Below the pieces are notes generated by a model. The model saw only the letters and a list, made by a program, of their open reading frames with translations, was not told the DNA's origin and made no database searches. From Candidatus Micrarchaeota archaeon (GTDB taxonomy: Archaea > Micrarchaeota > Micrarchaeia > Anstonellales > Bilamarchaeaceae), in contig CAZKHX010000001.1 of assembly GCA_964552755.1 (NCBI GenBank), forward strand, positions 18,007 to 82,006: a stretch of 64,000 bases of DNA. Direction: 5' to 3'. Shown here piece after piece: positions 3,208 to 50,409 of this stretch; position 1 is the stretch's first letter, and every line of letters starts with the position of its first letter. A program made the position numbers and the translations under genes.

Positions 3208-3218
3208 ATGGAATTCGC

Positions 3219-12319: not shown

Positions 12320-12456
12320 AATACTATTGTGGCTGGAAGTGTTTATAAATGTATTTTTTTGGCAGAAGGTGGTTGTTCGCGCACACCCGTGTTCCCGCCC
12401 GGAAATGGGCAAAAAACCGCAACCTTTATATTACACATCCTTCCCTAAATAACCAT

Positions 12457-15193: not shown

Positions 15194-17911
15194 CTAAAGT
15201 CGCTCCCCGTATTCGGTGATGAAGCGCTCGTACTCCGCAAGCAGCCCCGCAGTAATCGAGGGCCGCATGCGCGAGATTATGTCAACAACTTTTTCAGTGG
15301 TCAGCTTCGGCTCCTTGCCCGTTGAGCTCTCCCTGAGCAGGTACATGCGCGCCTGCTGGGCGACCGCAGCGATGTCCGCCCCGGAGAATCCCTCGGAAAC
15401 CTTCGCGAGCTTCTTCAGGTCCAGCCCCGTGGCGAATTCGCCGAGGTGGATGTTGAAGAGCTGCTCGCGCCCGGTGGAGTCCGGCGCGTGCACATAAATT
15501 ATCTTGTCAAAGCGGCCGGGCCTCAGGATTGCGGGGTCGAGCATCTCCGGCTTGTTCGTTGCGCCCACAATCATCACGCCCTCCATTCCCTTTATGCCGT
15601 CCATCTCCACAAGGAACTGGCCGGTGATTTCAGCGCGCCCGATATCCCTAGAAGGCGCAACCGTTTCAATCTCATCTATGAAGATCACGGAAGGCGGGTT
15701 CTCCCGCGCCCGGTTGAAGGTTTCCTTGATTACGTTCACCGCATGGGTGTAGCCGCGTTTCATCAATTGCGCACCGCCCAGCGAAAGGAACGTGATGTCC
15801 AGCTCGTTGGAAGCTGCGCGGACAACAAGCGTCTTGCCGCACCCGGGCGGGCCGAACATCAAAATCCCCTTGGTGGGCTTCACCCCGTACCTCTTCACCA
15901 GCTCGGGGTGCAGCAGCGGCGTCTCAATCGCCTCGCGGAAAGAGCGCTTCACGTCCTCCAAATCCGCAACATCGTTCCAGCCGATTTTCTTCTCCGCCTC
16001 TTTCTCTTTGGGCGCCTTCTCCGCTTCGCGCTCCGCAACCCCTGCGACCGAGCGCTCGAAATCGGTCCTGAACTCATCGTAATCCTCAATCTGCGCAAAA
16101 GTGGTGCTGGGCTTGGTGTGCTCAAGCACAGCGCGCAGCAGATCCATGGTGACCGGCACTACCTTTCCGGTCTTCTTTGCCTGGCCTGCAGCGAGCCCCA
16201 CCGCCTCCTTCACTACGTTTGCGATGTCCGCGCCGGAGTAGCGGTCGCTCTCAGCCGCCAGCTTCCTGTAATCGACCTTTTTCCCGAGTATGCCCTTCTT
16301 TGCGAGCCCTTCCATGTGCACCTTGAATATCGCCTCCCGCGCCTCCTTGTCCGGAAGGTGCATGTACACTATCTTGTCAAAGCGGCCGGGCCTCATGAGC
16401 GCCGGGTCCAGCTTGTTCGGCACATTGGTTGCGCCAACCACGATCACCGGCTTCTTGTTGTCGGTTTTCAGGCCGTCCATTTCCTGGAGGAGGATGCTTA
16501 GCACGCGCGGCCCCACGTCATCTGAAGAGGCTGCCATGCGCTTCTTCCCCAGCGCATCGATTTCATCGAAGAAAAGTATCGCCGGCGCGCTTTCCCGCGC
16601 CTTTGCGAATATCTCGCTTATGTTCTTCTCGCTCTCGCCCACCCATTTGGAGAGGATATCCGAGCTTTTCACATAGTACATGCGGAAGTCCAGCTCCTTT
16701 GAAAGGGCGCGCATGAGCATCGTCTTCCCGGTGCCGGGAGGCCCGAAGAGCAGTATCCCCGAAGGCGGCTTAATCCCGTATGCGCTCGCAAGCTCAACGT
16801 TCTGCAGGGGCAGCACTATGGAGCTGCGCAGCTCATCCTTCACGTCATCGTAGCCGCCCACATCGTCAAGCCCCTCCTCGCCCCCTCCGATGGACATGTC
16901 CTGCAGCCCAAACTTCCCGAATGATTTCATTTTCTCCTTCGCGCTTATCTTGCGCTCGCGGGATACGTGCGCCCCGAGAAAGTCGGCCGCGCCGACCACC
17001 GCAACCGCAAGCAGGAAATAGGGGAACATCATCCAGCTGAATGCGAAGCCCACAAAGGAAAGAAGGAAATATGCAAGGGGCACCAGCAGTATCGCAAGCG
17101 CGGATTTCGTCTGGTTCCACCTCCCCTTCCTGAATACGCGGGGGAGCATCCCCACAACGTAGAGCGCCGCACCCCACACCATCAACTGCACAATGCCGCC
17201 GTCCATGAACAGCAGCGTGACCGAATTGGAGAATATCTTCCCGAGCACCGCCCACACATGGGTTGCGGAGGCGAAGTTGAGTATTGAGCCCAGCGCAGCC
17301 CCGATTTCGGAGCCGAGGGCGCCCAGCTCAACCGGCCCGGCCCTGAGCGCAAGCTGGCCCACCGCGGGCTCATATGCGGAAAGCGTGACCGGCAGGAATG
17401 CGTTGTTCGGCACCAGCCAGAGCGAAGAGAGCAGCAGTATGATGAACACCGCGGGCACGGAAATCAGCACGCTCTTGCGCGAGCCGAAATGGAAGCTGCC
17501 CAGCAGCATGAGCAGGTAAACCATCCCGCCGAGCATTGCAAAGGGTGCGGCGGCAAAGGGCAGGAGGCAGATTACTTCCAGCAGCGCGATTATCCCCCAG
17601 TTGTCGAACATCTCGAAGAAGACAATTGCGAGAAGGAGGAGCCCCAGCCAGCCCCATACGGTGGACTGGAACGCGAATGCGGGGATTGCGAGTATCCATG
17701 TCGCGCCCACCCCGAGGGGCGGCTTCTTCATTGCGATTGCGCCGCAGATGAGCGCGAGGACGAATGCAACCGCAATGGGGTAGAATGGGATTGCGGTGAG
17801 GAGCGCAAGCGCCCCAAGGAATACGAGTATTGCATTCCAGAAGGATTCGCTCTCCTGGAGCTGCTGCGTGTAGGCCACTATCCTTTGCTGAGTGAGCGTC
17901 GCCCCGGCCAT
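15194..17911 (-). CDS. Membrane-anchored tandem AAA+ ATPase (Cdc48/VCP-like D1+D2 with ~330-aa polytopic N-terminal domain)
   Basis: Two Walker A motifs ('GILLFGPPGTGKTML', 'GILMFGPPGCGKTLV'), each followed by Walker B 'DEID/DEIE' and SRH regions. The N-terminal third has ~8-9 predicted TM helices. Confidence 0.85.
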   Translation of the reverse strand: MAGATLTQQRIVAYTQQLQESESFWNAILVFLGALALLTAIPFYPIAVAFVLALICGAIAMKKPPLGVGATWILAIPAFAFQSTVWGWLGLLLLAIVFFEMFDNWGIIALLEVICLLPFAAAPFAMLGGMVYLLMLLGSFHFGSRKSVLISVPAVFIILLLSSLWLVPNNAFLPVTLSAYEPAVGQLALRAGPVELGALGSEIGAALGSILNFASATHVWAVLGKIFSNSVTLLFMDGGIVQLMVWGAALYVVGMLPRVFRKGRWNQTKSALAILLVPLAYFLLSFVGFAFSWMMFPYFLLAVAVVGAADFLGAHVSRERKISAKEKMKSFGKFGLQDMSIGGGEEGLDDVGGYDDVKDELRSSIVLPLQNVELASAYGIKPPSGILLFGPPGTGKTMLMRALSKELDFRMYYVKSSDILSKWVGESEKNISEIFAKARESAPAILFFDEIDALGKKRMAASSDDVGPRVLSILLQEMDGLKTDNKKPVIVVGATNVPNKLDPALMRPGRFDKIVYMHLPDKEAREAIFKVHMEGLAKKGILGKKVDYRKLAAESDRYSGADIANVVKEAVGLAAGQAKKTGKVVPVTMDLLRAVLEHTKPSTTFAQIEDYDEFRTDFERSVAGVAEREAEKAPKEKEAEKKIGWNDVADLEDVKRSFREAIETPLLHPELVKRYGVKPTKGILMFGPPGCGKTLVVRAASNELDITFLSLGGAQLMKRGYTHAVNVIKETFNRARENPPSVIFIDEIETVAPSRDIGRAEITGQFLVEMDGIKGMEGVMIVGATNKPEMLDPAILRPGRFDKIIYVHAPDSTGREQLFNIHLGEFATGLDLKKLAKVSEGFSGADIAAVAQQARMYLLRESSTGKEPKLTTEKVVDIISRMRPSITAGLLAEYERFITEYGERL

Positions 17912-19870: not shown

Positions 19871-19922
19871 GCGTCAGGATTAACCGGCAACCCTTTTTAT
19901 CTTTTTCCTCGAAAGTGGCGCA
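19870..19922. promoter_or_regulatory. Short divergent intergenic region with AT-rich TATA-like element between the two operons of the membrane-system block
   Basis: 'CCTTTTTATCTTTTT' lies ~30 nt upstream of ATG 19922. The same element read on the other strand precedes the minus-strand operon start (19870). Confidence 0.4.
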
Positions 19923-21187: not shown

Positions 21188-22074
21188 TGAGGGCCGCGCT
21201 CTTCCTCCTGCTGCTTGCGCCGCTGTGCTCCGCGGCAACCTGCGACTTCGCGAGCGACGTGTTCGCGGATGCAATCCCGATAATCGCCGCTGCGATACTT
21301 TTCTCAGTGGCGCTTGCCGCAATAATGTACATGGCAGGCAGCGTGCTGCACGACCCCGGCCTGCACGTGGGCAGCAAGGACCTGCTGTTCCAGGCATTCG
21401 TCTCCATACTGCTAGTGCTCTTCATACAGGGGCTGTTCACCGGGCTGTGCCTCATGACGGCAGATTTCCTGGGAGGGCAGGATGCCCTCTCCACCGCAAT
21501 CTACGATCTGAGGCAGCTCAAGATTGAGGGTGCGCAGATACTCACCAACCTGATGAAGAAGGTGGTGAACGAGAAGTTCACCGCGGCGTATTTCTCCGGC
21601 TACTACATCCCGCTGAGCGGGGGCGAGACGTTTTTCCCCTACGGGGAGCACAACGCATATGCGCGCCATGCGGAAATCGTCTTCGACATGGCGATGATCG
21701 GCTACGTGAGCGTGGGCATACAGAGCATGATACTGAAAGGGATACGGGACCTCACGCTCGCGATACTGCTCCCGTTCGGGCTGATACTGCGCTCCCTCCC
21801 CAAGCTCAGGGAGGGCGGCAACATCCTCATCGCGCTCGCTCTCGCATTATATGTGGTATTGCCGTTTGCGTATGCTGTGAATTCCACCGCTGCGGACATC
21901 ATCCCTGATTTCTGCGACGGCGATGACGGGGTGTTCGGCGCATGCGGGGATGGGTACGGGTTCGGCACGGTCGGGCTCTACCTGTTCCGTACGGTATTCC
22001 TACCGAACCTCGCGCTGGTGATTTTCGCAACTTCCGCAGGCGCGCTGGTGAAAGTCGCGAAGGTGATTCCATGA
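21184..22074 (+). CDS. Polytopic membrane protein, paralog M2
   Basis: 'MMRAALFLLLLAPLCSA' N-terminus; core motif 'LLPFGLILRSLPKLREGGNILIALALALYVVLP'. ATGA overlap with M3. Confidence 0.7.
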   Translation: MMRAALFLLLLAPLCSAATCDFASDVFADAIPIIAAAILFSVALAAIMYMAGSVLHDPGLHVGSKDLLFQAFVSILLVLFIQGLFTGLCLMTADFLGGQDALSTAIYDLRQLKIEGAQILTNLMKKVVNEKFTAAYFSGYYIPLSGGETFFPYGEHNAYARHAEIVFDMAMIGYVSVGIQSMILKGIRDLTLAILLPFGLILRSLPKLREGGNILIALALALYVVLPFAYAVNSTAADIIPDFCDGDDGVFGACGDGYGFGTVGLYLFRTVFLPNLALVIFATSAGALVKVAKVIP

Positions 22075-23879
22075 ACAGGCGCATAGCGGCATTGCTGCTC
22101 CTCGCGATATTCCTTTTCGGGTGCGCCACGGAAGGCACTGCGACCGAAAGCGCGATAATCGAGGCGCAGGAGCGCGACACGCTCGTAGGCAACATGGTCG
22201 CGAACTGGGAGCTCTTCGCGGTAATGCTGATGCTCATCTCCGTGGGCCTTGTCGCAATGGCGTATGCGATTTCCATCTCCTTCAACCTCCCCGACCTGAG
22301 GGCATGGGCGGACGTTGAGCTCTCGGAAGTGTTCACCACCGCGCTCATAGTGATTTTCATAATCGCGATACTGGTATTCGTGGATGTTACTGCCGGCGCG
22401 ATGGTTGCAAGCGAGCCGATGTTCGCAGGGACGTGCGACCCGATGCTGAATCCCGAGGCCGGGCATGCCTTCTGCCCGTCCCTGCTCGCAAAGGAATACA
22501 TCGGCCAGTACGTGGATGCGGCGGAAACGCTTTACGAAAAGCTCACCAAGCGCGCGATAAACAAGGCGCAGGATGCGACCTACTCCTCCGGGCTCGGCAT
22601 CTCTTACCAGATTTACCTCTACCTCTCCATCTCATGGAGGAACCAGCCGTGGGAGATGATGAATGTGGAGCGGCTGGAGCAGCTAATCAATTTCACCGGC
22701 ATGGTGCTGGGCGCGCTGCACACGCAGAGGTTCCTGATAGATTCCATGTCGCTCGGCTTCGGGCCGATTGCCCTGCTCCTTGGCATAGTGTTCCGCTCGT
22801 TCTTCGTAACGCGCAAGATGGGCGGCCTGCTGATGGCATTTGGAATTGGGTTCATGCTGGTCTACCCCGCGTCGTATGCGCTAGGCTGGTTCACGCTTAA
22901 CGTTGCGATTTACGGAGTGGAGAACGTTGCGAGCGGCCCCACGGGCACATGCCCGCAGTCCTGCCTGCAGGCCCCTCCTTCCGGCTTCTACACCGACACG
23001 CTGGAGCCCGCGGCGTACAATGACGTTTATGCGGCCGCACTGGAAGAGGCGGACGGGGATGCGGAAGCGGCAAATGATGTCCTCCGCGGGTTCTTCAATG
23101 GCTCTACCCAGCGCCTCGGGGGCATTGAGTCGTGCGAATACTACGGCAATGAAGATGCGCTGAACTGCAGCTCCGCATGCAGGAGCCTCCCCTACCCGAT
23201 GCAGTCCTCGGGCTGCGCCGCGCGGGAGGCGGCATGCGCGGAGATGCCCGATGCGTGCATAATTTCGCACTATTACGATTCCGCGGACCCGGTGCTCCAG
23301 AACATAGATGCCGCAGCGGAGGTGAAGGCATGCCCGGCGGACTGCCAGCCCCTCGTGCCGATGAAGAGGGACTGCATCGAGGAATACGGGTATTCATGCC
23401 CGTCCCAGTGCAGGTACGTGATACTGGATACCGGGACCGGCGCGACAAAGACCGAGCCGGGGTGCTGGTGCACCGAATATTACCCAACTAATGCGCTCGA
23501 GCTATGGAGCGGAGCCCGCGCGGAGGAGAGCTGCGTGTACATAATTCCGGAAAAGGTCTATGACCAGCCGACCTACTGCAATGACTGCAGCTACACACTC
23601 GATCCCGGGCTTGCGTACAAGCCGCAGGTGTTCGTGGACTGCACTTCCCTTTGCGGCTCATCCACCAACCCCACCATAAACACCGAGGACCCGGCAACCG
23701 CTTCGAACAAGGTGGACGGGTTCATAGGGAACTCGGACATCAAGTCCGCGGCGAAGCTGGTGGTCCCCGCGTTCCTGCTGCCGCTGTTCAACCTCGCGGT
23801 AACCTTCATATTCATACAGACGCTTTCCCCGATGCTCGGCGGGGACATCGACATACCGGGCATGATGAGGCTGATATGA
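22071..23879 (+). CDS. Polytopic membrane protein, paralog M3, with ~290-aa Cys-rich extracytoplasmic insertion
   Basis: 'MNRRIAALLLLAIFLFGC' lipobox-like N-terminus; core motif 'IALLLGIVFRSFFVTRKMGGLLMAFGIGFMLVYP'; >25 Cys in the 22900-23760 segment; C-terminus '...IPGMMRLI'. Confidence 0.7.
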   Translation: MNRRIAALLLLAIFLFGCATEGTATESAIIEAQERDTLVGNMVANWELFAVMLMLISVGLVAMAYAISISFNLPDLRAWADVELSEVFTTALIVIFIIAILVFVDVTAGAMVASEPMFAGTCDPMLNPEAGHAFCPSLLAKEYIGQYVDAAETLYEKLTKRAINKAQDATYSSGLGISYQIYLYLSISWRNQPWEMMNVERLEQLINFTGMVLGALHTQRFLIDSMSLGFGPIALLLGIVFRSFFVTRKMGGLLMAFGIGFMLVYPASYALGWFTLNVAIYGVENVASGPTGTCPQSCLQAPPSGFYTDTLEPAAYNDVYAAALEEADGDAEAANDVLRGFFNGSTQRLGGIESCEYYGNEDALNCSSACRSLPYPMQSSGCAAREAACAEMPDACIISHYYDSADPVLQNIDAAAEVKACPADCQPLVPMKRDCIEEYGYSCPSQCRYVILDTGTGATKTEPGCWCTEYYPTNALELWSGARAEESCVYIIPEKVYDQPTYCNDCSYTLDPGLAYKPQVFVDCTSLCGSSTNPTINTEDPATASNKVDGFIGNSDIKSAAKLVVPAFLLPLFNLAVTFIFIQTLSPMLGGDIDIPGMMRLI

Positions 23880-24922
23880 TGAGGAAGCTGCTGCTGTTCG
23901 TGCTGCTGGCCGTTGCGGCCTGCTGGGCTGCCGAGCCCTATGAATGGCAGGCGCTCTCCATCATGGCGGTGTTCGTCGCGTTCATAGTCCTGGTAATCCT
24001 GTACATGCTCACCTACCTTGCGAATTCGCCGGAAATGCGCACAATGGTGAGCAGCGAGATGTACCAGGTGATATTCACCCTTTTCATAATCGCGATATTC
24101 ATCGGGGTGGAGGCGTTCTCCGCGGAAGTGATCGGGCCGGCTTTCGGCCTCGATTTCGGGGCGGCGGAGGGCCAGAACCAGATAGACTACGCACTGGAGG
24201 TCACGGGCGGCCCGGACGCATCCGACGGCCTCATCGCCTACCAGTGGGGCGAGATGCTCTCCTTCGCAAACAACGTGGTCTCGCCGCTGGGCACGCTTTC
24301 CGCGCTGAGCGCAAGGTGCTCGTTCCTCGGGTTCTCCTTCGGGTTCGCGGGCTGCGCAGGGCTTGCGGTGCCGTTCGCCTCCGCGTCCCTCGCAATGCGC
24401 GTGCTCTCAACCTCGCTGCTTATGCTCAATTCACAATACTTCCTGCTGAAGCTCGCGCAGGGCTTCTTCTTCCCGGTGCTGCTGCCGGTGGGGCTGTTCC
24501 TGCGCTCGTTCCACGTCACTAGGGGCGCGGGCGCCCTCCTCATTGCAATTGCCGCGGCATTCTATTTCATGTACCCGGTCGGCGTGCTCGTGACAAAGGG
24601 GATGGCGGACATGGTGGACTACCCGGACCCGGACATCCCGCACTTCGAGGCGCCGGACCCGACCGAGGCAGGGGAAATCCTTGGCGTGGACCTGCCCCCG
24701 GACGTCGACTGCAACCCCTTCGACAATGACTACAAATACACGAAAAGCGCGATGAACAAGCTGCTTGATGACGATTTCCTGCAGCCCATGCTGTTCCACT
24801 TCATGATTGCCGGCCTGCTGAATACTGCCCTGAGCCTTATGATAGCCCTCTCCGTTGTCGGGGGGCTTGCGAGGCTGTTCGGCGCGGAGGTTGACGTTTC
24901 CGCGCTTGCGAGGATGATATGA
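23877..24922 (+). CDS. Polytopic membrane protein, paralog M4
   Basis: 'MMRKLLLFVLLAVAACWA' N-terminus; core 'LLPVGLFLRSFHVTRGAGALLIAIAAAFYFMYP'; C-terminus '...SALARMI'. ATGATGA overlaps at both ends. Confidence 0.75.
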
Positions 24923-25932
24923 TGGGATGCCCTATTGACCTTTCAGGAGTTTACGGCCTTTCGGTGCTGGCACTGGGCATTACATTGATTGCCGTGGGGC
25001 TTGCTTATGCGCTCGGGCAGATGCTCAGGAACCCGCGCTTCAACGTTTGGGCAAAGACGGAAGTGTTCCAGGTATTCGTTACATTCGTGCTGGTGATTGT
25101 CACGCTTTTCCTTGTGGACAGCCTGTGCACGTTCCAGTATGGCGCGCTCACCTCGCTTGCGCCCATCTCGGTTGAGGCGTATGAGCATCCCGCAATATCG
25201 GATACGGACGTGGTGGCGGACGCCGCGGGAGGCTACCTCAAGAACCTCGCGTATTTCGCGCACATAGCAATGGGCAACTCCCGCGCGGTTTACGGCGGGC
25301 TGGAGAAGGCGCTGCGCTATAGCCGCTCCCCATGCATGCCCGCGTGGCTCCTCTGCATGCTCGGGCCGAACGGGTACACGCTCGCGCCCTACAGGGGCGG
25401 CTCCGGATGGATACAGGTCGCGAACCTCACCCTCTACACAGACACAATCTCATATCTCACGGTGCTTGCGCAGCTTGCGCTGCTGCAGTTCATACTCGGG
25501 GGCGGGCTCGCGGTGCTGATGCCCGCGGCAATAATCATACGCTCCCTCCCGTTCATGCGGATATTCGGGGGAGGCCTGCTCGCGATATGCATATCCCTGC
25601 TCATAGTCTACCCGTTCCTGCTGATGGCGGAATCGCTTTTCTGGAACCCGTATGAGATGATAGGGCAGGAGAATTTCGATGGCCTGGAAGACCTTGCAGG
25701 GAAGGCGCGCGATGCCAGCCACTCCGATGACCTCACGCTTTGGTCGGGAGGCGACGGCTATTCCAAGCTGCAGAGGTACTTCGACCAGGTGTTCCTCGGC
25801 TCGTCCGCCACATTCATGTCCTCGACTTTCCTGTTCATGCTGAACGTGCTTGTGATTACTGCCTCCGCGAGGGAGTTCGGCCGCGTGCTCGGAGTCGAGG
25901 TTGACATGAGCCGGCTGATGCAGATAGTGTAG
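24919..25932 (+). CDS. Polytopic membrane protein, paralog M5
   Basis: Core 'LMPAAIIIRSLPFMRIFGGGLLAICISLLIVYP'; C-terminus '...SRLMQIV'. Confidence 0.7.
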   Translation: MMGCPIDLSGVYGLSVLALGITLIAVGLAYALGQMLRNPRFNVWAKTEVFQVFVTFVLVIVTLFLVDSLCTFQYGALTSLAPISVEAYEHPAISDTDVVADAAGGYLKNLAYFAHIAMGNSRAVYGGLEKALRYSRSPCMPAWLLCMLGPNGYTLAPYRGGSGWIQVANLTLYTDTISYLTVLAQLALLQFILGGGLAVLMPAAIIIRSLPFMRIFGGGLLAICISLLIVYPFLLMAESLFWNPYEMIGQENFDGLEDLAGKARDASHSDDLTLWSGGDGYSKLQRYFDQVFLGSSATFMSSTFLFMLNVLVITASAREFGRVLGVEVDMSRLMQIV

Positions 25933-25940
25933 GTGATGAG

Positions 25941-26954
25941 ATGACTGCAGGCGTTGATGAGATGCTCGGGACGGTTTTCCTCAGCCAGTGGGTTGCGCAA
26001 ATGGGCTGGTTCACCAATGCGGTGCTCGCGGTCATCGTCACCGCCTTCATATTCGGGATAATCTACGTGATTGCGTACGCAATCAACTCCTTCCCGCTGA
26101 GGAGGTACGCGACATCGGAGTTCCTGCAGCTCGCGGCTACCGCGCTGATGGTAATCGGGCTGGTGGCCTTCATCCAATTGGGCTCTGCCGCGGTTTCCAC
26201 CTCCCTCGAGGGACTGGGCGTGCCATGCATGGGCGAAACATATGTTGAGCCGATAAGCGCCGCGATGTGCAAGACGGAAGAGCGGCTGATATTCTTCGAT
26301 GAGGCATGGAGCTTCCTGCGCGAGGACGTGCGCGGGGCGGAATGGTTCTACTACTTCACGATTTCCTATTACGGCGTGCCGCTGTTCCAGGGGCTTTGGG
26401 TGGCGTCAATCCACAGGCAGGTGGAGACCGCGCACTACCTTGCGTACAAGATAGTGTCCATACAGCTTTCCCTCAATGCGCAGATGTTCCTGCTGAAATA
26501 CATACGGGAAAACATGCTCACCATCTTCCTGCCGCTGGGGATAATACTGCGCACGTTCTATTTCACGCGCGGCATAGGCGGGTTCTTCATAGCGCTGGCG
26601 CTGTCCCTGTATTTCATATACCCCACAGCGCTGTTCATCATGACCGCGGTTTCCATCGGGCCGCCGGCCGTGCCGGTCCCCTCGCTTACCACAGTGGGCA
26701 TCTGCGACCTTCCAATGTACTCCGGAATGGCGTTCGGCTCCGCGAACCTTGCGACCATGGCCGGCACGGGCGGGAGCACGATGGCCTCCGCAAGCGTGAA
26801 CACAATCGCATCCTTTGTGAATACGGTATTCGTGAGGATGTTCTATGAGAACATGGTCGCGTTTGCGATTGCGCTTACCGCGCTCCGCTACGCAGGGGTG
26901 CTGCTTGGCACCGAGACAGGGGTGTTCCTGCACATGGTTTCGAGGTGGATATGA
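25941..26954 (+). CDS. Polytopic membrane protein, paralog M6
   Basis: Core 'FLPLGIILRTFYFTRGIGGFFIALALSLYFIYP'; C-terminus '...HMVSRWI'. ATGA overlap with the next gene. Confidence 0.7.
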   Translation: MTAGVDEMLGTVFLSQWVAQMGWFTNAVLAVIVTAFIFGIIYVIAYAINSFPLRRYATSEFLQLAATALMVIGLVAFIQLGSAAVSTSLEGLGVPCMGETYVEPISAAMCKTEERLIFFDEAWSFLREDVRGAEWFYYFTISYYGVPLFQGLWVASIHRQVETAHYLAYKIVSIQLSLNAQMFLLKYIRENMLTIFLPLGIILRTFYFTRGIGGFFIALALSLYFIYPTALFIMTAVSIGPPAVPVPSLTTVGICDLPMYSGMAFGSANLATMAGTGGSTMASASVNTIASFVNTVFVRMFYENMVAFAIALTALRYAGVLLGTETGVFLHMVSRWI

Positions 26955-29900
26955 TGAAAAAGCTTCTTGCGCTGCCCGCAATCGCCTTCCTTTTCCTTCT
27001 GGGGTGCAACGCGCCCACTTACCAGGATTGCTGCCTTTACGCGAACGCAAGCGATAGCGGCATCTGCGTGATGCTGAACGGCACAATCTACGATGACAGC
27101 ACCTGCGACATGGAACTGCTCACCTGCAACGTGACGCTGGACGACAGGGAGCTGGAGATCCCCCTCTGCCCGAAAGTGGACAAGGTTAGATGCAACACCT
27201 CCTGCGTGGGCGTGTTCTGCGGCAGCTTCGACTACGACCCGAGGCCGCTGCCCAGCCCCGCGGATGACATGCAGAGCGACGATGAGGAATCGCAGGAGCG
27301 GGTGACTGCAGGCTCCGCTTCCGAGCGCGGGCCGATAAACCTTTTCCAGTCCGAGTGCAGGGTGAAGAACATCACCCCCGCGTTCCTGCGCGCCGCGAAG
27401 AGCACGGGCGGGTTCACGCTCAACGTGTTTCGCTTCGGGGTCGGGAACTCCTTCGCGGAATTCGACGAGGCGATGGCATACTTCCCGCTCACCGACCTCT
27501 CCTGCAGGATAAACATGTACGGGACGAAGGACCGCTACGTGAACTACGTGCTGCCGAACAGCATAGACGGCTCGGAAAAGCTGTGCAGGTTCACCGGCAT
27601 CCTTGACGCGATGTATATCTGCAATATTGATTCCACAATCGAGTCGCACAGCTATTACGACTGCGCGAGCAGATGCGCGCTCGCATACCAGGGCTACGAG
27701 CCCAATGTGGACCCGGACAACCCCTACCCTACGGAGAACGAGGCCGGGGAGCTCGTGGGCAACCCGTTCTCGTACGGGATTTACGGCACCTATTCGCTTG
27801 CTCCGGCCGAGCCGCTTGTGCTGAGCAGCAAGTACCGCGACCAGGTTGACATGTCCGGCATCACGTTCACTTCCACCTCGCCATTCAAGGACGAGTACCA
27901 GCCGGGCTACAACTTCTACGGCGCGACCTTCAGGAAATCCGATTCGCTCAGCGCGGAGAGGGGGGGAATAGACTGGGCAGTCGCAAGATACGGCCTGCCC
28001 ATTTTCTTCACCGATTCCATATACGACTATTACTCCGGGGAGATGGAGGACACGGACTCCATGGAGTTCTCCGGCTCCACCACCGTTTTCACCACCGCGG
28101 AGCAGGACCTGCACGGCGCGTACATCCCGCTGCTCACCCACCACTCGGTTTATGCGGACCAGCTTGCCGAGGGCCACAGGCTAGACAACGGCTCATGGAT
28201 GCCGGGCGCGGAGTTCGAGTGTGCGGACAATTCCGAATGCATCTCCGGCTTCTGCAACACTTTCGACTACCACCGGGGCAACTGCATCCCCAAGGACAAG
28301 TGGATTCTGGGCGAATATATCTCCAACTATGAAGTGCCGTGCGGCTGCTGGGAATACCAGGGCGAGACGCTCTGCCCAGGGATGCAGAGCTATGAGGCGC
28401 AGGCATGGGACGACACAAGCGAAAGGGTGCGCGCGACCGCAGCGCTTTCCGCCCCCGTGCGTGCGCACAAAGAGCTGGAGGTGCTCACCCCGCTGCGGAG
28501 CATGCCCTCCAAGGGCCGCGTGTTTTCCCATGAGGATGATGAGACCGGGGAAACCATCCCCTACGTAGTGATACAGGTCGGCGGGGAAAGCAGGCACCCT
28601 ACTTACGGGTACACTAATTTCGGAGCCCTGGACATGGCAGGCGTGTTCGATGATGAATCGTACAGGGCCGCGATGGCAGCATGGCTCATGGCCGTCGATG
28701 CAAGAACCCTTACCATCGACCAGGCGCTTTCCCGTGACAAGTGGGGCCAGTGCGGCACGGACTGCGGCAAGTTCTACACGACCTTTGCGGAGGCATGCAT
28801 GCCCGAATGGGATTCCGACCCGGATGCGTATGACTATTTCCACATGTGCAGGGAGTTCCCCGAGGTTTCCGGCGGCTCTGCACCCCCCGCCGCAGTCTAC
28901 GGGAAAAAAGTGTCCCCTTCCACCGGGGAAGCGGTGGATTCCGGCTTCTGCGCCTCCCTCAACGGGAACAGCGAGCTGTACGATGAGGTCTTCTGCTATG
29001 AGCGCAACATAGACGATGACTGCGTAGCATGGTCCACTACCGCGATAGTTGTAGAGCCGCGCCCGGTTACTTACCGCGATGAGGAGGGCAGGGAAATTGC
29101 AGGCTATGCTTTCGGCAACTGCCTTGCGGACGAGGACGGCACGGAGCTGCTCACGCACACCTACGGGATTTGCGAGCAGTGCACCTTCCTCACGCTCGCG
29201 AAGCAGGAAATCGTTCCCCTCCCGCAGGACGAGGACGACCCGGGCTACCCAGGGAGCGGCGACAGGGAGGACAACAAGTACTGCCCGAACGTGGTGGTGG
29301 AGACGCCCTACGAGCCGAACGACCCTGCAGTAACGAAATTCGGGAGCCTCGGCCCTTATGACGAGTGGCAGGTTGGCGGCACTCACGGCACCGAGGACTA
29401 TTCTCAGTGCTACATGCCGGACTATTCCGAGAACGGCCTGCAGGAAGCCTGGGCCGACTACCTGCCCAACGCATACTACCTTAAGAGGAAAACCGAGAGC
29501 TACCTAGTGCGGGGCGTGATGCCCGTAATCGTCGCGACCAACGACAGCCTCTGGGAGGCATACACGAGCCCCGGGGGCGAGAGAGACTGGGCGCTGATGG
29601 CGTATTATTGGAACCACATCACGAGGGATGACGAAGGATATGCGCGGGTAACTATAGACGCGAGCCACCCCTACATGATTGAGCTTGCGGAGAACGAGCC
29701 GCAGCTGCTGGAGCAGTTCGCGCAGCATGACGAGGCCGGGGAATACTATGCCTTCGGAGGCCCGCTGCTCCTGAACGGCATACAGGACATGGGCGCCGCG
29801 ATAATCATCGTCGGGAACCAGGACCTTGGCGACTGGAGCAGCATACCCCTGTTCGGCGCTTACAGTGCCGGGGGCGGGGCAAGCAACAGGGACAGGGCCA

Positions 29901-31108
29901 GGGCGGTCCGCCTCATCTGCCCCAACTGCATGGTCGCAGTGGGCGCGGGTTATACCGGATACGGGGGGGATGCCGAGAACAGCTACCAGCGCCGGCTCGA
30001 TTTCGCGAACTTCCTTTTCCGCTACCAGAACGAATCAACGCATTACATACTCAACGGGCCGGACAGCTACAACCTGACCATCCCGTGCGAAGACCCGCGG
30101 CTTGAATGCGACAACGAGGCCCTGAACCTGGTGGACGTGCTTGCGATGAAATGGGAGCTCAGCAAGGAGGATTCCTTCTGCGAAATAGAAAATGAGCAGG
30201 AGCGCTTCCAGGCAATCCTTGACGCGGAAACCGGCCTCGGCTCGCGCATGCTTGCGCGCTTCCACAAGCCGGTCGTGATTACGGACTTCAGCATAGTGCT
30301 CACCGAGTTCGATACCTGCTGGGACGCGGAGAGCGCCGCACGCTTCATGGTATTCCTTTCGGAGCACACGCAGGAGCTTGCGGAGAGCGGCCACCTAGGC
30401 ATAATCTATGATGCATGGACGAAGGAGCGGGCGGAGGCCGCGCCCACGGGCACCGCCACCGCTGCGGAGCAGGGCCGCGCCTACATCCGCGTGGACTCGG
30501 GCGACGTGGACGGCAGGAGGGGCACGTTCTATGAGGGCGCCTTCATCGCCTCGCGCATCTTTGCGGGCTACGAGCACAAGACCTATTTCAACGAGGTGAG
30601 CGCAACCGAGGAATGCTACTGCGAGCCCTGCCTGCCCTCCGACCCGGATGAGATTTGCAACGGCCGCTACCGCGGGGTTGGCTATGAGTGCAAGGACTAT
30701 GACGGCTCGCGCAGCAAATGGTCTGAAATGTGCGTCTCGCTCAACCAGTGCACCCTCCCCGGCGAGGATGATTATGAGATTGAATGCGACGTGATATACA
30801 ACAACGGCACCCGCACCACGGAAACCTACCATTCTGATGACATTGCGGAAACCCCTCAGCTCTACATGGACGTGATTGCCTCAATCGAGGAGGGCTACGG
30901 CACGCCCTGCTTCAACTTCAGCGGCAATTACATAAGCTATGTGAAGATTGGCGAGCCGATTTTCCAGGCAACGCCCACGATGTTCAGGACCGATGGCGAC
31001 ACCGCCAAGTCCTGCACCCCGCTGGAGGGCTTCGACCTTTCCTTCTGCGGCTACACGCCGCCCGTGAGCGACAGGGAGATGCACTGTGAAATACTAGGGG
31101 TGAGGTGA
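26951..31108 (+). CDS. Giant (1387-aa) secreted cysteine-rich lipoprotein
   Basis: 'MMKKLLALPAIAFLFLLGC' is a signal peptide plus lipobox. The protein is very Cys/Asp/Tyr/Asn/Gly-rich throughout and has no TM after the signal. It is translationally coupled to M6. Confidence 0.75.
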   Translation: MMKKLLALPAIAFLFLLGCNAPTYQDCCLYANASDSGICVMLNGTIYDDSTCDMELLTCNVTLDDRELEIPLCPKVDKVRCNTSCVGVFCGSFDYDPRPLPSPADDMQSDDEESQERVTAGSASERGPINLFQSECRVKNITPAFLRAAKSTGGFTLNVFRFGVGNSFAEFDEAMAYFPLTDLSCRINMYGTKDRYVNYVLPNSIDGSEKLCRFTGILDAMYICNIDSTIESHSYYDCASRCALAYQGYEPNVDPDNPYPTENEAGELVGNPFSYGIYGTYSLAPAEPLVLSSKYRDQVDMSGITFTSTSPFKDEYQPGYNFYGATFRKSDSLSAERGGIDWAVARYGLPIFFTDSIYDYYSGEMEDTDSMEFSGSTTVFTTAEQDLHGAYIPLLTHHSVYADQLAEGHRLDNGSWMPGAEFECADNSECISGFCNTFDYHRGNCIPKDKWILGEYISNYEVPCGCWEYQGETLCPGMQSYEAQAWDDTSERVRATAALSAPVRAHKELEVLTPLRSMPSKGRVFSHEDDETGETIPYVVIQVGGESRHPTYGYTNFGALDMAGVFDDESYRAAMAAWLMAVDARTLTIDQALSRDKWGQCGTDCGKFYTTFAEACMPEWDSDPDAYDYFHMCREFPEVSGGSAPPAAVYGKKVSPSTGEAVDSGFCASLNGNSELYDEVFCYERNIDDDCVAWSTTAIVVEPRPVTYRDEEGREIAGYAFGNCLADEDGTELLTHTYGICEQCTFLTLAKQEIVPLPQDEDDPGYPGSGDREDNKYCPNVVVETPYEPNDPAVTKFGSLGPYDEWQVGGTHGTEDYSQCYMPDYSENGLQEAWADYLPNAYYLKRKTESYLVRGVMPVIVATNDSLWEAYTSPGGERDWALMAYYWNHITRDDEGYARVTIDASHPYMIELAENEPQLLEQFAQHDEAGEYYAFGGPLLLNGIQDMGAAIIIVGNQDLGDWSSIPLFGAYSAGGGASNRDRARAVRLICPNCMVAVGAGYTGYGGDAENSYQRRLDFANFLFRYQNESTHYILNGPDSYNLTIPCEDPRLECDNEALNLVDVLAMKWELSKEDSFCEIENEQERFQAILDAETGLGSRMLARFHKPVVITDFSIVLTEFDTCWDAESAARFMVFLSEHTQELAESGHLGIIYDAWTKERAEAAPTGTATAAEQGRAYIRVDSGDVDGRRGTFYEGAFIASRIFAGYEHKTYFNEVSATEECYCEPCLPSDPDEICNGRYRGVGYECKDYDGSRSKWSEMCVSLNQCTLPGEDDYEIECDVIYNNGTRTTETYHSDDIAETPQLYMDVIASIEEGYGTPCFNFSGNYISYVKIGEPIFQATPTMFRTDGDTAKSCTPLEGFDLSFCGYTPPVSDREMHCEILGVR

Positions 31109-31118
31109 GGGTGATTTA

Positions 31119-34100
31119 ATGTTTTGTCCCGAAATAAAGGCGATGAGGCCCGCCGCATTCCTTGCGCTCCTGATTCTCGTTTCCCTAGCCTTTTCCACGA
31201 CCGGCCGGCTGCCCATGCAGATCGACCAGCCGCCGCTTATACCCGGGATGGGCGTCCCGCCCATGCACGTCCCTCCCCCTTGCGAGGAATGCCCTGCAGA
31301 GGGTTCCCTGCAGCCGTTCATGTTCTCCTCCCTAAATGAGGAGGCGGAGATTACCACTGTTACGATGGGGGTGCAGGCTGCGGACGAGCGCTACCCCGTG
31401 GAGGGCGCCACAATTTTTGCATATGTTTACGACCGTGACGGGTTCGAAACTGACAAGTGCAGGATGTACACCGATTCATCCGGCACCGCGGAATTCGACT
31501 TCAGCGGCATCCCGGAATGCACCGGAGGGGACGGGTGTACGATGCGCTTCATCTTCTGCTGCCCGAACCCCGGGCAGGGGTGCCTCATCGCAAGCTGCCT
31601 TGACGAGCCGATTACCGATTATACTGATTTCCCAATGTGCGCAGATTACAGCGGCGGGATATGGCCCGAGGCCGCAACGGTAGACGGTTCAGAGGAGCCG
31701 CTTTTCCCTGCGTATACCGAAACGGTGAGGCCGCCCGAAGAGGTGGTGATTGGCACCGCATTCGAGTTCGACCTCTGCTTCCCGGTGCTTGTCATTTTCG
31801 GCTTCCTTGCGGCCGCGATGTTTGCCGCGGGCAGGAATCCCTTCTCTGCATTTTCCATCTACACCCCGCGCTACACGCGGGGCGCGGAGCGCGCAATCAG
31901 TGCCCGCGGGTTTTCAATTGACGCGGCAAGCGTCGCGAGCGCGCTCGGCCTCGCCATGGCAGGGGGCAAGGCGCTCAAGAAGGCCGCGAAAAAGGCCGCG
32001 GCAAAGGCCAAGAAAGCGGGAGTGAGCGCCAAAAAGGTGCAGATGGCGGTGAAAGGCGCACAGACCCCTTCCAAGAAGCTGGGAGTGCAAGAAGGAGAAG
32101 AGGCAAAAGGGGGCGCGCAGGCCCAAAAGGCCGAATTGACCGGGGCGGGGGGGCCGACGCAGGCGGAAATAGCGATGGGCGCGGCCGCAGGAAAAGCGAT
32201 GCCCGGAGGCACCGCGATGGCCTTCGGAAAGTCCTTCTTCAAGGCAATATTCTCAATATTCAAGGGCGGCGATGCCGCAAGGGCAGCATGGGCGGAATTC
32301 GGGCAGCTGATGTCTGCCGGCAAGTTCAGGGGAGACATGGCGGCCCAATACCAGGGAGCAGGGGTAAGGGAGGCAGGGCTCGCATTCCTGGATACCCTCC
32401 TGCTGTTCGCAACCCCCTTCGGCCTTTACTATGCATTCGGGCAGCTGGGCCCGGTCAAGAAGCAGCTTGCCAAATACCAGGGCCAGAGGAACGCTCTTGT
32501 CGCGGCAGGCCTCATAAACCAGTTCAAGGAAGGCACCGCCTACATAAAGGAGAAGGACGGCATAGTCACGGTGCAGTTCGACAACGTCGCCACCGGGGAA
32601 ACAGTAAAGGAAACGTTTGACATAACCACAGAAAAGGGCATGAAGGCCTACCAGCACTTCCTCAACATCAACATAGTGATGCCTATCCAGATAGGCACCT
32701 CATTCATCCAGAGCCAGATGCAGGAAGGCCAGCAGGAAATGGCAAAGCAGGGGAACGGGGCGCTTACAGGGGATTCCGGGGACCTGCTCACCCAGTTCTA
32801 CCTTGTCGAGCAGGGCATGAACGTTGCGGAGCTCCAGAAATACTCCGACGCAAAGGCAGTCGACGCGGTGCTCACAGACCGCAAGGCCACTTCCGAGCAG
32901 AAGCTCTTCGCATTCCTTGCCTACATGTCCTCGGACAAGGCGAACCTTGCGAAGGCATCAAAGGAATACACGAGCTTCAACAGCTTCCTGCTCGGCTACG
33001 GGGGGGCCGCGGACCTAGTGGGCGAAGACGGCAAATTCAACGTTTCCGCCCTTACCGGAGCAATGCTGCTCTCGGGCCAGCTGGAAGGGGTATCCGAGAA
33101 GAAAGTCAGCGGCATAGCCGCGTTCAAGGCGAACCTTGAGGGGACCGTTGACCGGACAACCGGAGCGGCGCAAAACGAGGCAATAGAATCCCAGCTGCTG
33201 GCAATGGAAGCGCAGATGCTGCTTGAGGGAAAGGGCGAAAGGGAAATCGCGGTTGCGAAAAACAGGCAGGAGGCATACCTGCGCGGGAAGGGCATGGGGA
33301 TTTCCTCCGTCCTCGCGACCGAAGGCATGGGCGAGGACAGCAAGGCCGTCCAATTGGGCATACTCTCCCTGGGCTTTGCGAACATGGCCTATTCCGAGCA
33401 GCTTGGGAACAAGTCAATTGCGGAAACCGGCACCGGCAAGCTGAACAAATACTCTGCGGAGTATGCCGCGTGGAAGAAGCTCGAGATAGACGTAAGCGAG
33501 AGGAAGGGGGAGAAGCTGGAGCAGTTTGCGGATTCCTATAAGGATTATCAGGCATTCCTCGGGTATTCGCAGGAGATTGCGCTCGCGCTCCCGGAAATGC
33601 CCCCCGCGCTGCAGTACAAGCCGGAGGGCTCGCCCTCTGCCATGGCAATCGGCGTGGTTTCTGGGCAGGCGAAGCTGGAGAGCGTCCCGAAGGTGAGCGT
33701 CGGGGACGTTGCGGTTGCAGGCACCTACCAGATAGTGGGCAACCAGCAGGAAGCCGCGACGTATCTCAAAAACCTTGGGCAGATAGGCAATGCGTTCGAA
33801 ACGATGGGAATGCTCCTGCAGCCGATGGCAGTGGCCAACAACATAAACGCAATGAGTGTAGGCGGGGACCCGGAAACCGGCAAGGAAGGCAAGCCAGTTT
33901 ACGAACTGCTCGTTTCGGGAGAGCCGAAAGGCAAGAAGAAGGGAGAACTGTACGACTCGGCCATCTATGTAATGATGAGCACGCTGGAAACCTCATTCGG
34001 CGAGCCGCTTTCCACGCGGGGGGCGGAGGAGTATAAACAATTCGACTACATAAACTCCGGCGCGAAAAAGGCAGGGGAAAAGCCGCCGGAATATAAGGGC

Positions 34101-35156
34101 GCGGAGCTGCAGAAGCAGCTGGATGCGCAGGCAGCCATAATACTTGACCCTGCCGCAGACCCGGATGCAAAAGCCAAGGCGCTTGAGCAGTTTGGGTACC
34201 TTGCGCTGGGCACAATCCAGAGCTCCGGCAGCGCCAAGAAGGACAGGGGCATTGCGCTGGATGCAATTGCAGAGCTCGGCGTGACCAAGGCAACAAACCA
34301 ATATACGGACGCAACCCTTGGCCCAGAATACCTCCCCACATTCGAGACGACGACTGCCGAAACCGCCGCGGCGGAGCAGATACAAATAACAAAGGTGCAA
34401 TACCAGGCCCCCCAGCCCGAATATTCGAAGCCGGAAACCTCAGGGATGCTTACGACTTACCTCACCATGGGAAATACTTTCGCTGGCACTGAATCAATCC
34501 CCGGGGGGAGGGACCTGAAGAAAGAGATTGACTCCCAGACAAAGGTAGCGACTGACCCGAATTCCTCCCCGGACCAGGTAGCCGAATCGTTGCTTGTGCT
34601 TGGGCCGCTGACGCTTGGCGTTCTGCAGAACCCTGAAAGCAGCGCACAGGACAAGGCGCTGGCAAGGGCGGCCCTCACAGGCCTTGCGGACAAGGTGCCT
34701 GCTGACAACCTGCTGCCTCCCGAAGAAACGGTTGCCGAAACCACAGCAGGGGAACAGTTCAAAATCACGAAAAAAGGTTATGGCGCTCCGCCCCCCGCAT
34801 ATGCTCCCCCGGAGCCGGGCGCGAAGCCTCCCCTGGCCGGGGTGGAAGGCCTCGACCCGATGCAGAATTTCCAGAACATATACAACCTGCCGTCAGCGCA
34901 GAAGGCAATTGGCAAATACATGGAAGACCCAAAGATCCATGATGAAGCATTCAAGATGGAAAAAACCGCGAAGGAAACCTACGAAAGCATACCTGTGGGC
35001 GGCTACATAAGCAAGGAAGAGAAAGAGACCGTGCCCTTCCTTGAAGAACGCCCGTTGCCAAGGGCTACTGAGAGGTTTGAAGCGCCGCACGAAGCGACCG
35101 GCCCAAAAACAAGGGAGGAAAAGGCCGCAGGGCATTCCAAAGGCGGTAAGAAATGA
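31119..35156 (+). CDS. Giant (1345-aa) membrane protein: signal peptide, Cys-rich ~200-aa ectodomain, TM helix, then ~1100-aa K/A/E/Q-rich helical low-complexity domain with internal repeats
   Basis: Strong SD 'GGTGAGGTGAGGGTGAT' lies before ATG 31119. TM 'FEFDLCFPVLVIFGFLAAAMFAAG' at ~aa 215-238; 'KKAAKKAAAKAKKAG' tracts; ~130-aa internal repeat ('TAETAAAEQIQITKVQYQAPQPE' / 'TVAETTAGEQFKITKKGYGAPPPAY'). Confidence 0.75.
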   Translation: MFCPEIKAMRPAAFLALLILVSLAFSTTGRLPMQIDQPPLIPGMGVPPMHVPPPCEECPAEGSLQPFMFSSLNEEAEITTVTMGVQAADERYPVEGATIFAYVYDRDGFETDKCRMYTDSSGTAEFDFSGIPECTGGDGCTMRFIFCCPNPGQGCLIASCLDEPITDYTDFPMCADYSGGIWPEAATVDGSEEPLFPAYTETVRPPEEVVIGTAFEFDLCFPVLVIFGFLAAAMFAAGRNPFSAFSIYTPRYTRGAERAISARGFSIDAASVASALGLAMAGGKALKKAAKKAAAKAKKAGVSAKKVQMAVKGAQTPSKKLGVQEGEEAKGGAQAQKAELTGAGGPTQAEIAMGAAAGKAMPGGTAMAFGKSFFKAIFSIFKGGDAARAAWAEFGQLMSAGKFRGDMAAQYQGAGVREAGLAFLDTLLLFATPFGLYYAFGQLGPVKKQLAKYQGQRNALVAAGLINQFKEGTAYIKEKDGIVTVQFDNVATGETVKETFDITTEKGMKAYQHFLNINIVMPIQIGTSFIQSQMQEGQQEMAKQGNGALTGDSGDLLTQFYLVEQGMNVAELQKYSDAKAVDAVLTDRKATSEQKLFAFLAYMSSDKANLAKASKEYTSFNSFLLGYGGAADLVGEDGKFNVSALTGAMLLSGQLEGVSEKKVSGIAAFKANLEGTVDRTTGAAQNEAIESQLLAMEAQMLLEGKGEREIAVAKNRQEAYLRGKGMGISSVLATEGMGEDSKAVQLGILSLGFANMAYSEQLGNKSIAETGTGKLNKYSAEYAAWKKLEIDVSERKGEKLEQFADSYKDYQAFLGYSQEIALALPEMPPALQYKPEGSPSAMAIGVVSGQAKLESVPKVSVGDVAVAGTYQIVGNQQEAATYLKNLGQIGNAFETMGMLLQPMAVANNINAMSVGGDPETGKEGKPVYELLVSGEPKGKKKGELYDSAIYVMMSTLETSFGEPLSTRGAEEYKQFDYINSGAKKAGEKPPEYKGAELQKQLDAQAAIILDPAADPDAKAKALEQFGYLALGTIQSSGSAKKDRGIALDAIAELGVTKATNQYTDATLGPEYLPTFETTTAETAAAEQIQITKVQYQAPQPEYSKPETSGMLTTYLTMGNTFAGTESIPGGRDLKKEIDSQTKVATDPNSSPDQVAESLLVLGPLTLGVLQNPESSAQDKALARAALTGLADKVPADNLLPPEETVAETTAGEQFKITKKGYGAPPPAYAPPEPGAKPPLAGVEGLDPMQNFQNIYNLPSAQKAIGKYMEDPKIHDEAFKMEKTAKETYESIPVGGYISKEEKETVPFLEERPLPRATERFEAPHEATGPKTREEKAAGHSKGGKK

Positions 35157-35464
35157 CCGGAACCCGGCCGATGAGGCGCCTGAGGCGCCACCTCACGGTT
35201 GAGAACCTCTGGCTATACATCCTCTCATTAATCAGGAAAAAGAAGGAAGTTTACGCATATGCGCTCCCGGAAGAGATAGAGAAGCGCTATTCCTTCAAGC
35301 CCAGCAGGGTGATGATGTACATAGTATTGCACATGCTGGAGGATGAGGGGCTTATTACAAGCAAAATGAAGGAGCGCAGGAAATATTACAGGCTTACGAA
35401 GAAAGGCAACGAAGCGCTGAAAGAATCCAGGAAAATGCTCACATCCCTTTCAAGGAAGCTCTGA
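35153..35464 (+). CDS. PadR-family winged-helix transcriptional regulator
   Basis: 'ENLWLYILSLI...YAYAL...MYIVLHMLEDEGLI...RKYYRLTKKGNEAL' is a PadR signature. ATGA overlap with the giant gene. Confidence 0.75.
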   Translation: MTGTRPMRRLRRHLTVENLWLYILSLIRKKKEVYAYALPEEIEKRYSFKPSRVMMYIVLHMLEDEGLITSKMKERRKYYRLTKKGNEALKESRKMLTSLSRKL

Positions 35465-45782: not shown

Positions 45783-45783
45783 A

Positions 45784-48573: not shown

Positions 48574-48603
48574 GATTAGAATGCGCAGCCCGCTCTTAAA
48601 AAC

Positions 48604-50365: not shown

Positions 50366-50409
50366 TCGAGGTGGGCAACACTTAAAAATCCCATCTTCCC
50401 AGTAGGCGC

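Follow-up and report, generated by a model that had tools for sequence, protein, structure and literature searches.

We found that a 64,000 nt stretch of DNA from a Candidatus (Ca.) Micrarchaeota archaeon (contig CAZKHX010000001.1, positions 18,007 to 82,006 of the forward strand; the window, below) encodes a very large, cysteine-rich, lipobox-bearing protein, which we call the target, in one operon with six paralogous membrane proteins. The target is best filed as representing a new, unannotated superfamily of surface lipoproteins in archaea, one that contains a glycosidase-fold module in degenerate form. Our confidence is high for its architecture, its disulfides, and its synteny, and lower for the role that we tentatively propose, at slightly less than an even chance, which is that of an ectodomain subunit, anchored by lipid and acting as a glycan binder or scaffold, in an envelope complex specific to Micrarchaeota. 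We found neither the protein nor its gene cluster described in the literature that we searched. The window is archaeal: among its genes are those for a 23S rRNA of archaeal type, Pelota, and an AAA ATPase resembling Cdc48.

The gene and its family

The open reading frame (ORF) of the target is uninterrupted up to position 31108. It has three in-frame starts, a GTG at 26945 (1387 amino acids, aa), an ATG at 26951 (1385 aa), and an ATG at 26954 (1384 aa), of which the last is the start in public gene calls (100% identical protein) and overlaps the upstream stop codon by 1 nt. An earlier reading of the letters and ORFs, made without database searches (the sequence-only reading), had given 1387 aa from 26951; the uninterrupted frame to 31108 stands, but that length is obtained only from the GTG. 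The gene and the parts of its product are as follows.

26954..31108, + strand: target gene, lipoprotein precursor of 1384 aa
26954..27007, + strand: signal peptide and lipobox, residues 1-18, ending in FLLGC, with Cys18 of the invariant G17-C18 as the predicted lipidation site
27008..27253, + strand: N-terminal Cys-rich module, residues 19-100, with nine Cys, a CC motif, and the sequon N31-A-S33
27329..28633, + strand: two conserved modules of unknown fold, residues 126-340 and 341-560, delimited by the conservation profile
28634..29353, + strand: β-rich middle module, residues 561-800, with invariant C723...C740-x-x-C743
29354..30613, + strand: predicted clan GH-A-like (β/α)8 barrel, residues ~801-1220 (confident core ~830-1160), with invariant C989-P-N-C992
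30614..31105, + strand: C-terminal Cys-rich β module, residues 1221-1384, with 13 Cys and CxCxxC at 1221-1226

The mature protein would have 1367 aa, a mass of 152 kDa, and an isoelectric point (pI) of 4.28. It is rich in E, G, A, and D and high in Tyr (6.3%), with 1.6% His; the sequence-only reading had also counted N among the abundant residues, but Asn is at 4.0%.

The DNA is 59-61% GC and contains many spurious antisense ORFs, a setting in which a long non-coding ORF, or a fused or misassembled one, has to be considered, and the sequence-only reading had itself named frameshifts, fusion, or assembly error as what would overturn it. However, the identical protein is found on 13 contigs from independent assemblies, orthologues are colinear with the target over 98-100% of its length, and full-length colinear orthologues occur in more than 100 clusters, with invariant residues spread over the entire length. 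Because the identical gene is on 13 contigs and the full-length family is conserved, fusion or assembly error is excluded and this is a single gene; we give essentially no weight to an artefact, which is already refuted.

A word-indexed search returned 21-26 full-length relatives with 31-39% identity, and those with names are Micrarchaeota or 'Ca. ainarchaeum'. When we searched exhaustively with a hidden Markov model (HMM) built on the barrel region, taking 50%-identity representatives as clusters, we found 164 clusters at E <= 1e-3, 107 of them at E <= 1e-10, most of them 1200-1850 aa long with the matched region similarly placed. Every taxonomically named member belongs to Micrarchaeota, Micrarchaeia, or Anstonellales, and 21/21 loci in the species-representative genome collection are from Micrarchaeota. 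The sequence-only reading had proposed looking for orthologues in symbiotic archaea, and they were found there, all named ones in this phylum.

An exported protein with a lipobox

The N-terminus of the target, MKKLLALPAIAFLFLLGC, is a signal peptide followed by a lipobox. All 26 family members have G17-C18, as do all superfamily members that are not truncated, and the lipobox column is Cys in all 116 non-gapped superfamily members. Against the lipobox consensus [LVI][ASTVI][GAS]C, the L-L-G-C of the target fits at -3, -1, and +1. Nearly all full-length members have a signal peptide, a lipobox (mostly [AS]GC), and a CC motif 7-9 residues further on. An N-x-S/T sequon follows the CC motif in 61/118 members, against a background of 7.6%, and this conserved sequon is consistent with an extracytoplasmic location. 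We found no hydrophobic segment in the target downstream of the signal peptide. The sequence-only reading of a secreted lipoprotein with a signal peptide, an LLGC lipobox, and no later transmembrane segment was therefore well founded, in that the sequence supports an exported, lipobox-bearing extracytoplasmic protein.

Archaeal lipobox proteins receive a thioether-linked archaeol through AliA/AliB, and AliA has been reported in DPANN archaea (PMC12462473). From the lipobox and these established pathways, Cys18 is predicted to be lipidated with archaeol. The target resembles the AliA/AliB lipoproteins of Haloferax volcanii (PMC12462473) in having a signal peptide that ends in a lipobox Cys, and the Cys parity described below indicates that this Cys lies outside the disulfides in the target family. 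In contrast, the substrates known so far are mainly solute-binding proteins of a usual size, while the target has 152 kDa and about 26 predicted disulfides.

Paired cysteines

The target contains 53 Cys (3.8%), approximately four times the window background, with most other window proteins at about 1%. The enrichment is thus real, although the sequence-only reading overstated it as extreme and also described many CxxC or CxC motifs, when there are only two CxxC (743, 992), two CxC (466, 1224), and one CC, so that CxxC motifs account for 4/53 Cys and CxC motifs for four. Conservation of the Cys is strong: 50/53 are conserved in at least 19/21 orthologues (31-39% identity), most orthologues have exactly 53, and about 30 Cys columns are near-universal across the superfamily. 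Downstream of the lipobox Cys, 100/118 lipobox-bearing members have an even number of Cys (binomial p = 6e-15), with counts that run in twos (44, 46, 48, 50, 52, 54, and so on). This pattern is far beyond chance. Neighbouring Cys columns are also gained and lost together (1221/1260, phi 0.91; 1045/1052, 0.77; 1076/1122, 0.76; 444/463, 0.74), in pairs and not in quartets, with the phi values inflated by shared ancestry.

Even parity and paired co-loss of columns indicate approximately 26 predicted disulfides plus one unpaired lipobox Cys that would be free for lipidation. The sequence-only reading had left the choice between disulfides and metal sites open, and because the counts are even, step by two, and lose columns in pairs, disulfides are favoured. 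A redox or metal-binding surface protein, in which the Cys chiefly bind Zn or Fe-S, could draw on the invariant CxxC at 740-743 and 989-992, the latter near-universal in the superfamily, on the CxCxxC at 1221-1226, and on a short stretch, LLCPNCMVAV, that locally matches the Zn-knuckle in the C-terminal domain of LGP2 (E = 0.08). In zinc ribbons, paired CxxC knuckles form Cys4 sites, and the two invariant CxxC of the target are isolated, with no obvious second knuckle nearby. Against mainly metal-binding Cys, the counts go by twos and not by fours, only 4/53 Cys are in CxxC, His is scarce, and the location is extracytoplasmic. We consider chiefly metal-binding Cys very improbable, and the target may have one or two metal sites. 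The LGP2 similarity lies at residues 987-996 (29912-29941, + strand), where the LLCPNCMVAV-type consensus of the superfamily can be compared with the LGP2/DHX58 zinc knuckle LLCINCMVAV, and is probably a chance match.

Six modules, one of them a predicted barrel without a conserved catalytic pair

The target has no internal repeats or duplication, as judged by self-BLAST and by hhalign of six sub-profiles, so the search for repeat units suggested by the sequence-only reading came back empty. There was no match for the target in Pfam (E <= 0.1), NCBIfam, PHROGs, PADLOC, or PDB sequences, and in 33 diverse superfamily members Pfam detected no domain except for one DUF7107 insertion in one member. 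The same libraries yielded nothing useful for the operon partners of the target. The N-terminal Cys-rich module is followed by an acidic, poorly conserved linker (residues 101-125), and the two modules at 126-560 contain the motifs FRFGVG, DRYxNY, and GAEFEC...CxSGxC.

We ran AlphaFold2 on the target in two halves with a 26-sequence alignment. In the N-terminal half, the Cys-rich module is the sole part with a predicted local distance difference test (pLDDT) value of about 80. The C-terminal half has a mean pLDDT of 69.7, and residues ~830-1160 are at 80-93 and form alternating β/α elements. A Foldseek search of this half against the PDB returned TIM-barrel glycosidases of glycoside hydrolase (GH) families GH53, GH26, GH10, GH5, and GH128 (best E = 2.8e-4, probability 1.0), and a BFVD search placed phage glycosyl hydrolases on top. 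The two fold searches agree, and at the level of the predicted fold, the target has a (β/α)8 barrel of the clan GH-A type at residues ~830-1215. The earlier view that the protein has no recognisable domains is correct for sequence methods, but not for the predicted structure.

The residues that carry out catalysis in clan GH-A are not conserved in this barrel. In the superfamily alignment, there is no conserved acid/base Glu and no Asn-Glu where any candidate β4 strand ends; A/G/Y occupy residues 998-1000, and position 1068 is Glu in 15/114 members (8/26 in the core family). Likewise, there is no conserved nucleophile Glu at any candidate β7 end, where the alignment reads Y-S/G-P/D at positions 1152-1154; at position 1214, 60/116 members have Lys and 25/116 have Glu, and D1111 is Asp in 40/124. 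The conserved barrel positions are structural or aromatic (P857, G947, C989/C992, D1061, K1105-P1106, G1146, G1149, and Y1152). A search of PDB sequences with the barrel profile gave nothing beyond a 23-residue chance match. We therefore rejected GH-A catalytic competence as a property of the family, and because the acid/base and nucleophile Glu are not conserved across the superfamily, the predicted barrel is most likely a non-catalytic glycan-binding or scaffold module rather than a cleaving one.

Clan GH-A hydrolases such as the GH53 β-1,4-galactanases (6GP5, 1HJS) and members of GH5, GH26, and GH10 share the predicted (β/α)8 barrel with the target but differ in that the catalytic Asn-Glu (β4) and Glu (β7) are unconserved in the target family, no Pfam GH model matches, and the Cys-rich lipoprotein of 1384 aa has five further modules besides the barrel. 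A different comparison is offered by the GH128 subgroup VII oligosaccharide-binding proteins (6UBC, 6UBD), which are at ranks 21 and 46 of the Foldseek list and are GH-A-type barrels without hydrolysis. They have no sequence relationship to the target, and by this analogy the Micrarchaeota barrel might bind glycans.

A conserved operon

The target is gene 7 of nine tightly packed + strand genes (19922-35464), with spacings, in order, of -4, -4, -4, -4, +8, -1, +10, and -4 nt. The other genes of the operon and those beside it are as follows.

19922-21187, 21184-22074, 22071-23879, 23876-24922, 24919-25932, and 25941-26954, + strand: six paralogous polytopic membrane proteins, related by BLAST and alignment
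31119..35156, + strand: downstream partner, bitopic, 1345 aa, conserved in related loci
35153..35464, + strand: PadR-family regulator, last gene of the operon, with a 4-nt overlap with the previous gene
18845-19870, - strand: secreted Cys-rich protein, 341 aa, 12 Cys, with a C-terminal anchor, divergent
18519-18857, - strand: double zinc ribbon (DZR) protein, 112 aa, 12 Cys, divergent
17949-18518, - strand: 189-aa protein, divergent
15194..17911, - strand: membrane-anchored double-AAA (Cdc48-like) ATPase

The six membrane proteins are pairwise paralogous (BLAST E down to 1e-12, and alignment) and are translationally coupled to one another and to the target. Common to them are a helix at the N-terminus ('AYM..NP'), the invariant motif LRxFxFTRxxGG...P, and a tail at the C-terminus ('..G.E.D...L.R[LM]I'). 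Because their order is fixed as 1-2-3-4-5-6 in 17/17 complete loci, the paralogy is ancient and each copy is individually retained, as would be expected for non-redundant subunits of one assembly. Paralogue 3 (22071-23879) has its own lipobox (LFGC) and an extracellular insertion of ~270 residues with 23 Cys. A permissive Pfam scan of 80 members of the membrane family found no consistent family, the six-paralogue profile had no PDB sequence match, and a word-indexed search with it gave only eight matches, all from Micrarchaeota. The downstream partner has a signal or transmembrane segment, a Cys-rich ectodomain (~residues 30-215, 12 Cys), a transmembrane segment at 219-237, and a cytoplasmic region of ~1100 aa that is rich in A, G, K, and E, with no Pfam or PDB match. 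The extracytoplasmic portions of the module are all Cys-rich (3.5-3.8%), and the cytoplasmic parts are not.

The arrangement recurs in every related locus with enough flanking sequence, even where identity to the target falls to 23-30%. The target is shown to be coupled, in one operon, by synteny, by positional orthology, and by translational coupling, to the six ancient membrane paralogues and the bitopic partner. In the distantly related Ca. Anstonella stagnisolia (CABMCJ010000004.1, 110-9991), the upstream membrane proteins are much larger (1126, 933, and 876 aa), two of them have CARDB domains, and the downstream partner has 1991 aa. The three divergent neighbours are conserved, and the 189-aa and DZR proteins (17949-18857) adjoin the module even in distant genomes (loci L023 and L024). 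The double-AAA ATPase has a polytopic N-terminal membrane domain of ~330 residues and a Vps4_C-like C-terminus, and it is a direct neighbour of the module both in the window and in eight or more related loci, on a strand that varies between genomes; its membership of the system is uncertain. In the ERZ1426824 relative, the ATPase orthologue has 1404 aa and contains an intein with a LAGLIDADG domain.

The flanks of the module are housekeeping genes (Pelota, GMP synthase, and ProRS). Because of these flanks and the lack of phage or defence matches in PHROGs and PADLOC, the module is part of the chromosomal core, and we rejected a mobile element or defence island, given that the housekeeping synteny is conserved.

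A proposed role and its alternatives

In the mechanism that we propose, the target would be exported by Sec, as established pathways suggest, and Cys18 would be thioether-lipidated with archaeol through an AliA/AliB-type pathway. The other 52 Cys would form ~26 disulfides, stapling six unrelated, non-repetitive modules into a rigid ectodomain, in which the barrel, lacking the catalytic Glu residues, would bind glycans or serve as a scaffold. The target would then be the extracytoplasmic subunit of an envelope complex that is specific to Micrarchaeota and has its genes in one operon, which comprises those of the six membrane paralogues, the target, the bitopic protein, and the PadR regulator. 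With its membrane tether placing it beneath the surface layer (S-layer) or level with it, the target would link the membrane complex to glycans, either those of the cell's own envelope or those of a host cell, with a role in envelope organisation or host contact. The Thermoplasmatales host exposes mannose and galactose. We also considered an extended version of this proposal, namely that the target is the extracellular arm of a hitherto undescribed, phylum-defining envelope machine for host contact or exchange, with a hetero-oligomeric core of the six paralogues in the membrane, the pseudo-glycosidase lipoprotein outside, the ~1100-residue scaffold inside, and possibly the double-AAA ATPase as its power source; this we regard as rather unlikely.

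Several points weigh against the proposed role. The N-terminal half of the target (residues 19-580) has a mean pLDDT of 46.5 in the AlphaFold2 model, and most of the protein is without a fold assignment. The similarity of the barrel to glycosidases is at the fold level only, with 8-15% identity and template modelling (TM) scores of 0.3-0.4, and TIM barrels readily match one another. The target itself keeps E1068, D1111, and E1214, so the target subfamily may have residual hydrolase activity. Its lipobox deviates slightly, with Leu at -2, outside the strict [ASTVI], where most relatives have AGC or SGC. Finally, we infer the physical association of the target with the six membrane proteins from gene order only.

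That the target keeps these three acidic residues near strand ends, and that a GH-A-like barrel is its only recognisable fold, would also fit a glycoside hydrolase that is active outside the cell and breaks down polysaccharide of the host or of the environment. As a DPANN precedent, large proteins with lytic-transglycosylase domains have been proposed in Pacearchaeota and Woesearchaeota (PMC8204110). However, the same residues are unconserved across the superfamily, with position 1214 mostly Lys, and there is neither an Asn-Glu motif nor a GH Pfam model match in the 33 diverse members, and we believe that such an enzyme is improbable. The lytic-transglycosylase proteins are the nearest literature concept to the target. 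These proteins (fam00969), which have been proposed to mediate cell-cell interaction and to engage host walls (PMC8204110), are, like the target, lineage-specific, very large, extracellular DPANN proteins with a domain of the carbohydrate-active-enzyme type. They differ in having a lysozyme-like fold that is predicted to be catalytic, where the target has a TIM barrel and comes from a different phylum, and no six-paralogue membrane operon was reported for them (PMC8204110).

The sequence-only reading had seen an extracellular adhesin or structural protein, and an alternative along these lines is a surface protein that mainly serves to attach the micrarchaeon to its host. A predicted lipid-anchored, extracytoplasmic protein with a glycan-binding-type fold would suit this role in the host-dependent Micrarchaeota, and the partner membrane proteins of Ca. 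Anstonella carry adhesion-type CARDB domains. However, the target lacks repeats or a stalk, and its conserved single-locus architecture and fixed Cys framework are unlike the rapid variation typical of adhesins. It is also embedded in a membrane-protein operon and would be anchored at the cytoplasmic membrane, and in cultivated Micrarchaeota the S-layer is 20-25 nm above the membrane (bioRxiv 10.1101/2021.04.28.441871), so that a globular membrane-tethered target may sit largely beneath it, which tempers the adhesin reading. Given the absence of repeats, the strong conservation, and the six membrane-protein operon partners, a fixed subunit of an envelope complex fits better than a free adhesin, which we consider a poor prospect. 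A component of the S-layer, or a membrane anchor or pillar that holds it, would be in keeping with a large, acidic, phylum-wide protein that is predicted to be membrane-tethered and has a conserved N-glycosylation sequon, and Gfrerer et al. describe as unresolved how SLP_Mh, the S-layer protein of Micrarchaeota, is anchored (bioRxiv 10.1101/2021.04.28.441871). SLP_Mh (Micr_00292) and the target are both large, acidic, probably glycosylated, and conserved across Micrarchaeota, but SLP_Mh has an S_layer_N domain (PF05123) and almost no sulphur amino acids (bioRxiv 10.1101/2021.04.28.441871), and the target has neither of these features. The sequence-only reading would have given way to homology with a characterised S-layer protein; we found none to SLP_Mh and, with no S_layer_N match in Pfam (E <= 0.1) and a differing composition, we rejected the target as the known Micrarchaeota S-layer protein. 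A six-paralogue membrane operon is also not a feature of known S-layer loci, and an S-layer component or anchor seems to us slightly less probable still than an adhesin. We thus retain a subunit of an envelope complex as our tentative reading.

Other features of the window

The 23S rRNA gene (5788-9376, - strand) exceeds the Rfam model by ~600 nt and has a LAGLIDADG_1 ORF within it (6830-7387, - strand). Because of this excess and the endonuclease ORF, we believe that it probably contains a homing-endonuclease intron. No 16S rRNA gene adjoins the 23S rRNA gene in the window (unlinked rRNA genes). A 106-nt tRNA gene at 45784-45889 (- strand), which was detected by Rfam and not by ARAGORN, probably has an intron and slightly overlaps an ORF with a bPH_2 domain (45120-45812).

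At the start of the window, three tandem paralogous proteins of ~500 aa, each with a C-terminal phosphoenolpyruvate (PEP)-utilising mobile domain (183-4781, + strand), are followed by an aspartate/ornithine carbamoyltransferase-like gene (4808-5719). A gingipain-like peptidase C25 protein of about 670-700 aa is encoded at 10307-12412 (- strand); this peptidase family is often seen on DPANN cell surfaces. At 47965-53861 (- strand) there is a folate one-carbon operon consisting of a PurN-like formyltransferase, 5-formyltetrahydrofolate (5-FTHF) cyclo-ligase, a Mur-ligase-family protein, FolD, an unannotated 316-aa ORF, and SHMT. We rejected this 'Mur ligase' as a clue to the cell wall, as it is a FolC-like protein within the folate operon.

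Implications for Micrarchaeota

How DPANN archaea recognise and exploit their hosts is an open question, and the locus offers a concrete candidate for a surface apparatus. We know of no symbiont-encoded surface apparatus identified for Micrarchaeota. The candidate locus is ~15 kb long, phylum-wide, and fixed in order, and all eight of its structural genes are without annotation. Its extracellular parts are uniformly Cys-rich, which we read as disulfide-rich, and its largest ectodomain has the predicted fold of a glycan enzyme without the catalytic residues. We find the whole conserved module more interesting than the target alone, and no counterpart to it was identified in the literature searched. 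The target adds a very large predicted substrate, with ~26 disulfides, to the newly defined archaeal lipoprotein pathway, and its superfamily, with at least 164 clusters at 50% identity, could serve as a marker for Micrarchaeota. The locus also gives defined experimental targets in the cultivated systems Ca. Micrarchaeum harzensis and Microcaldus ARM-1.

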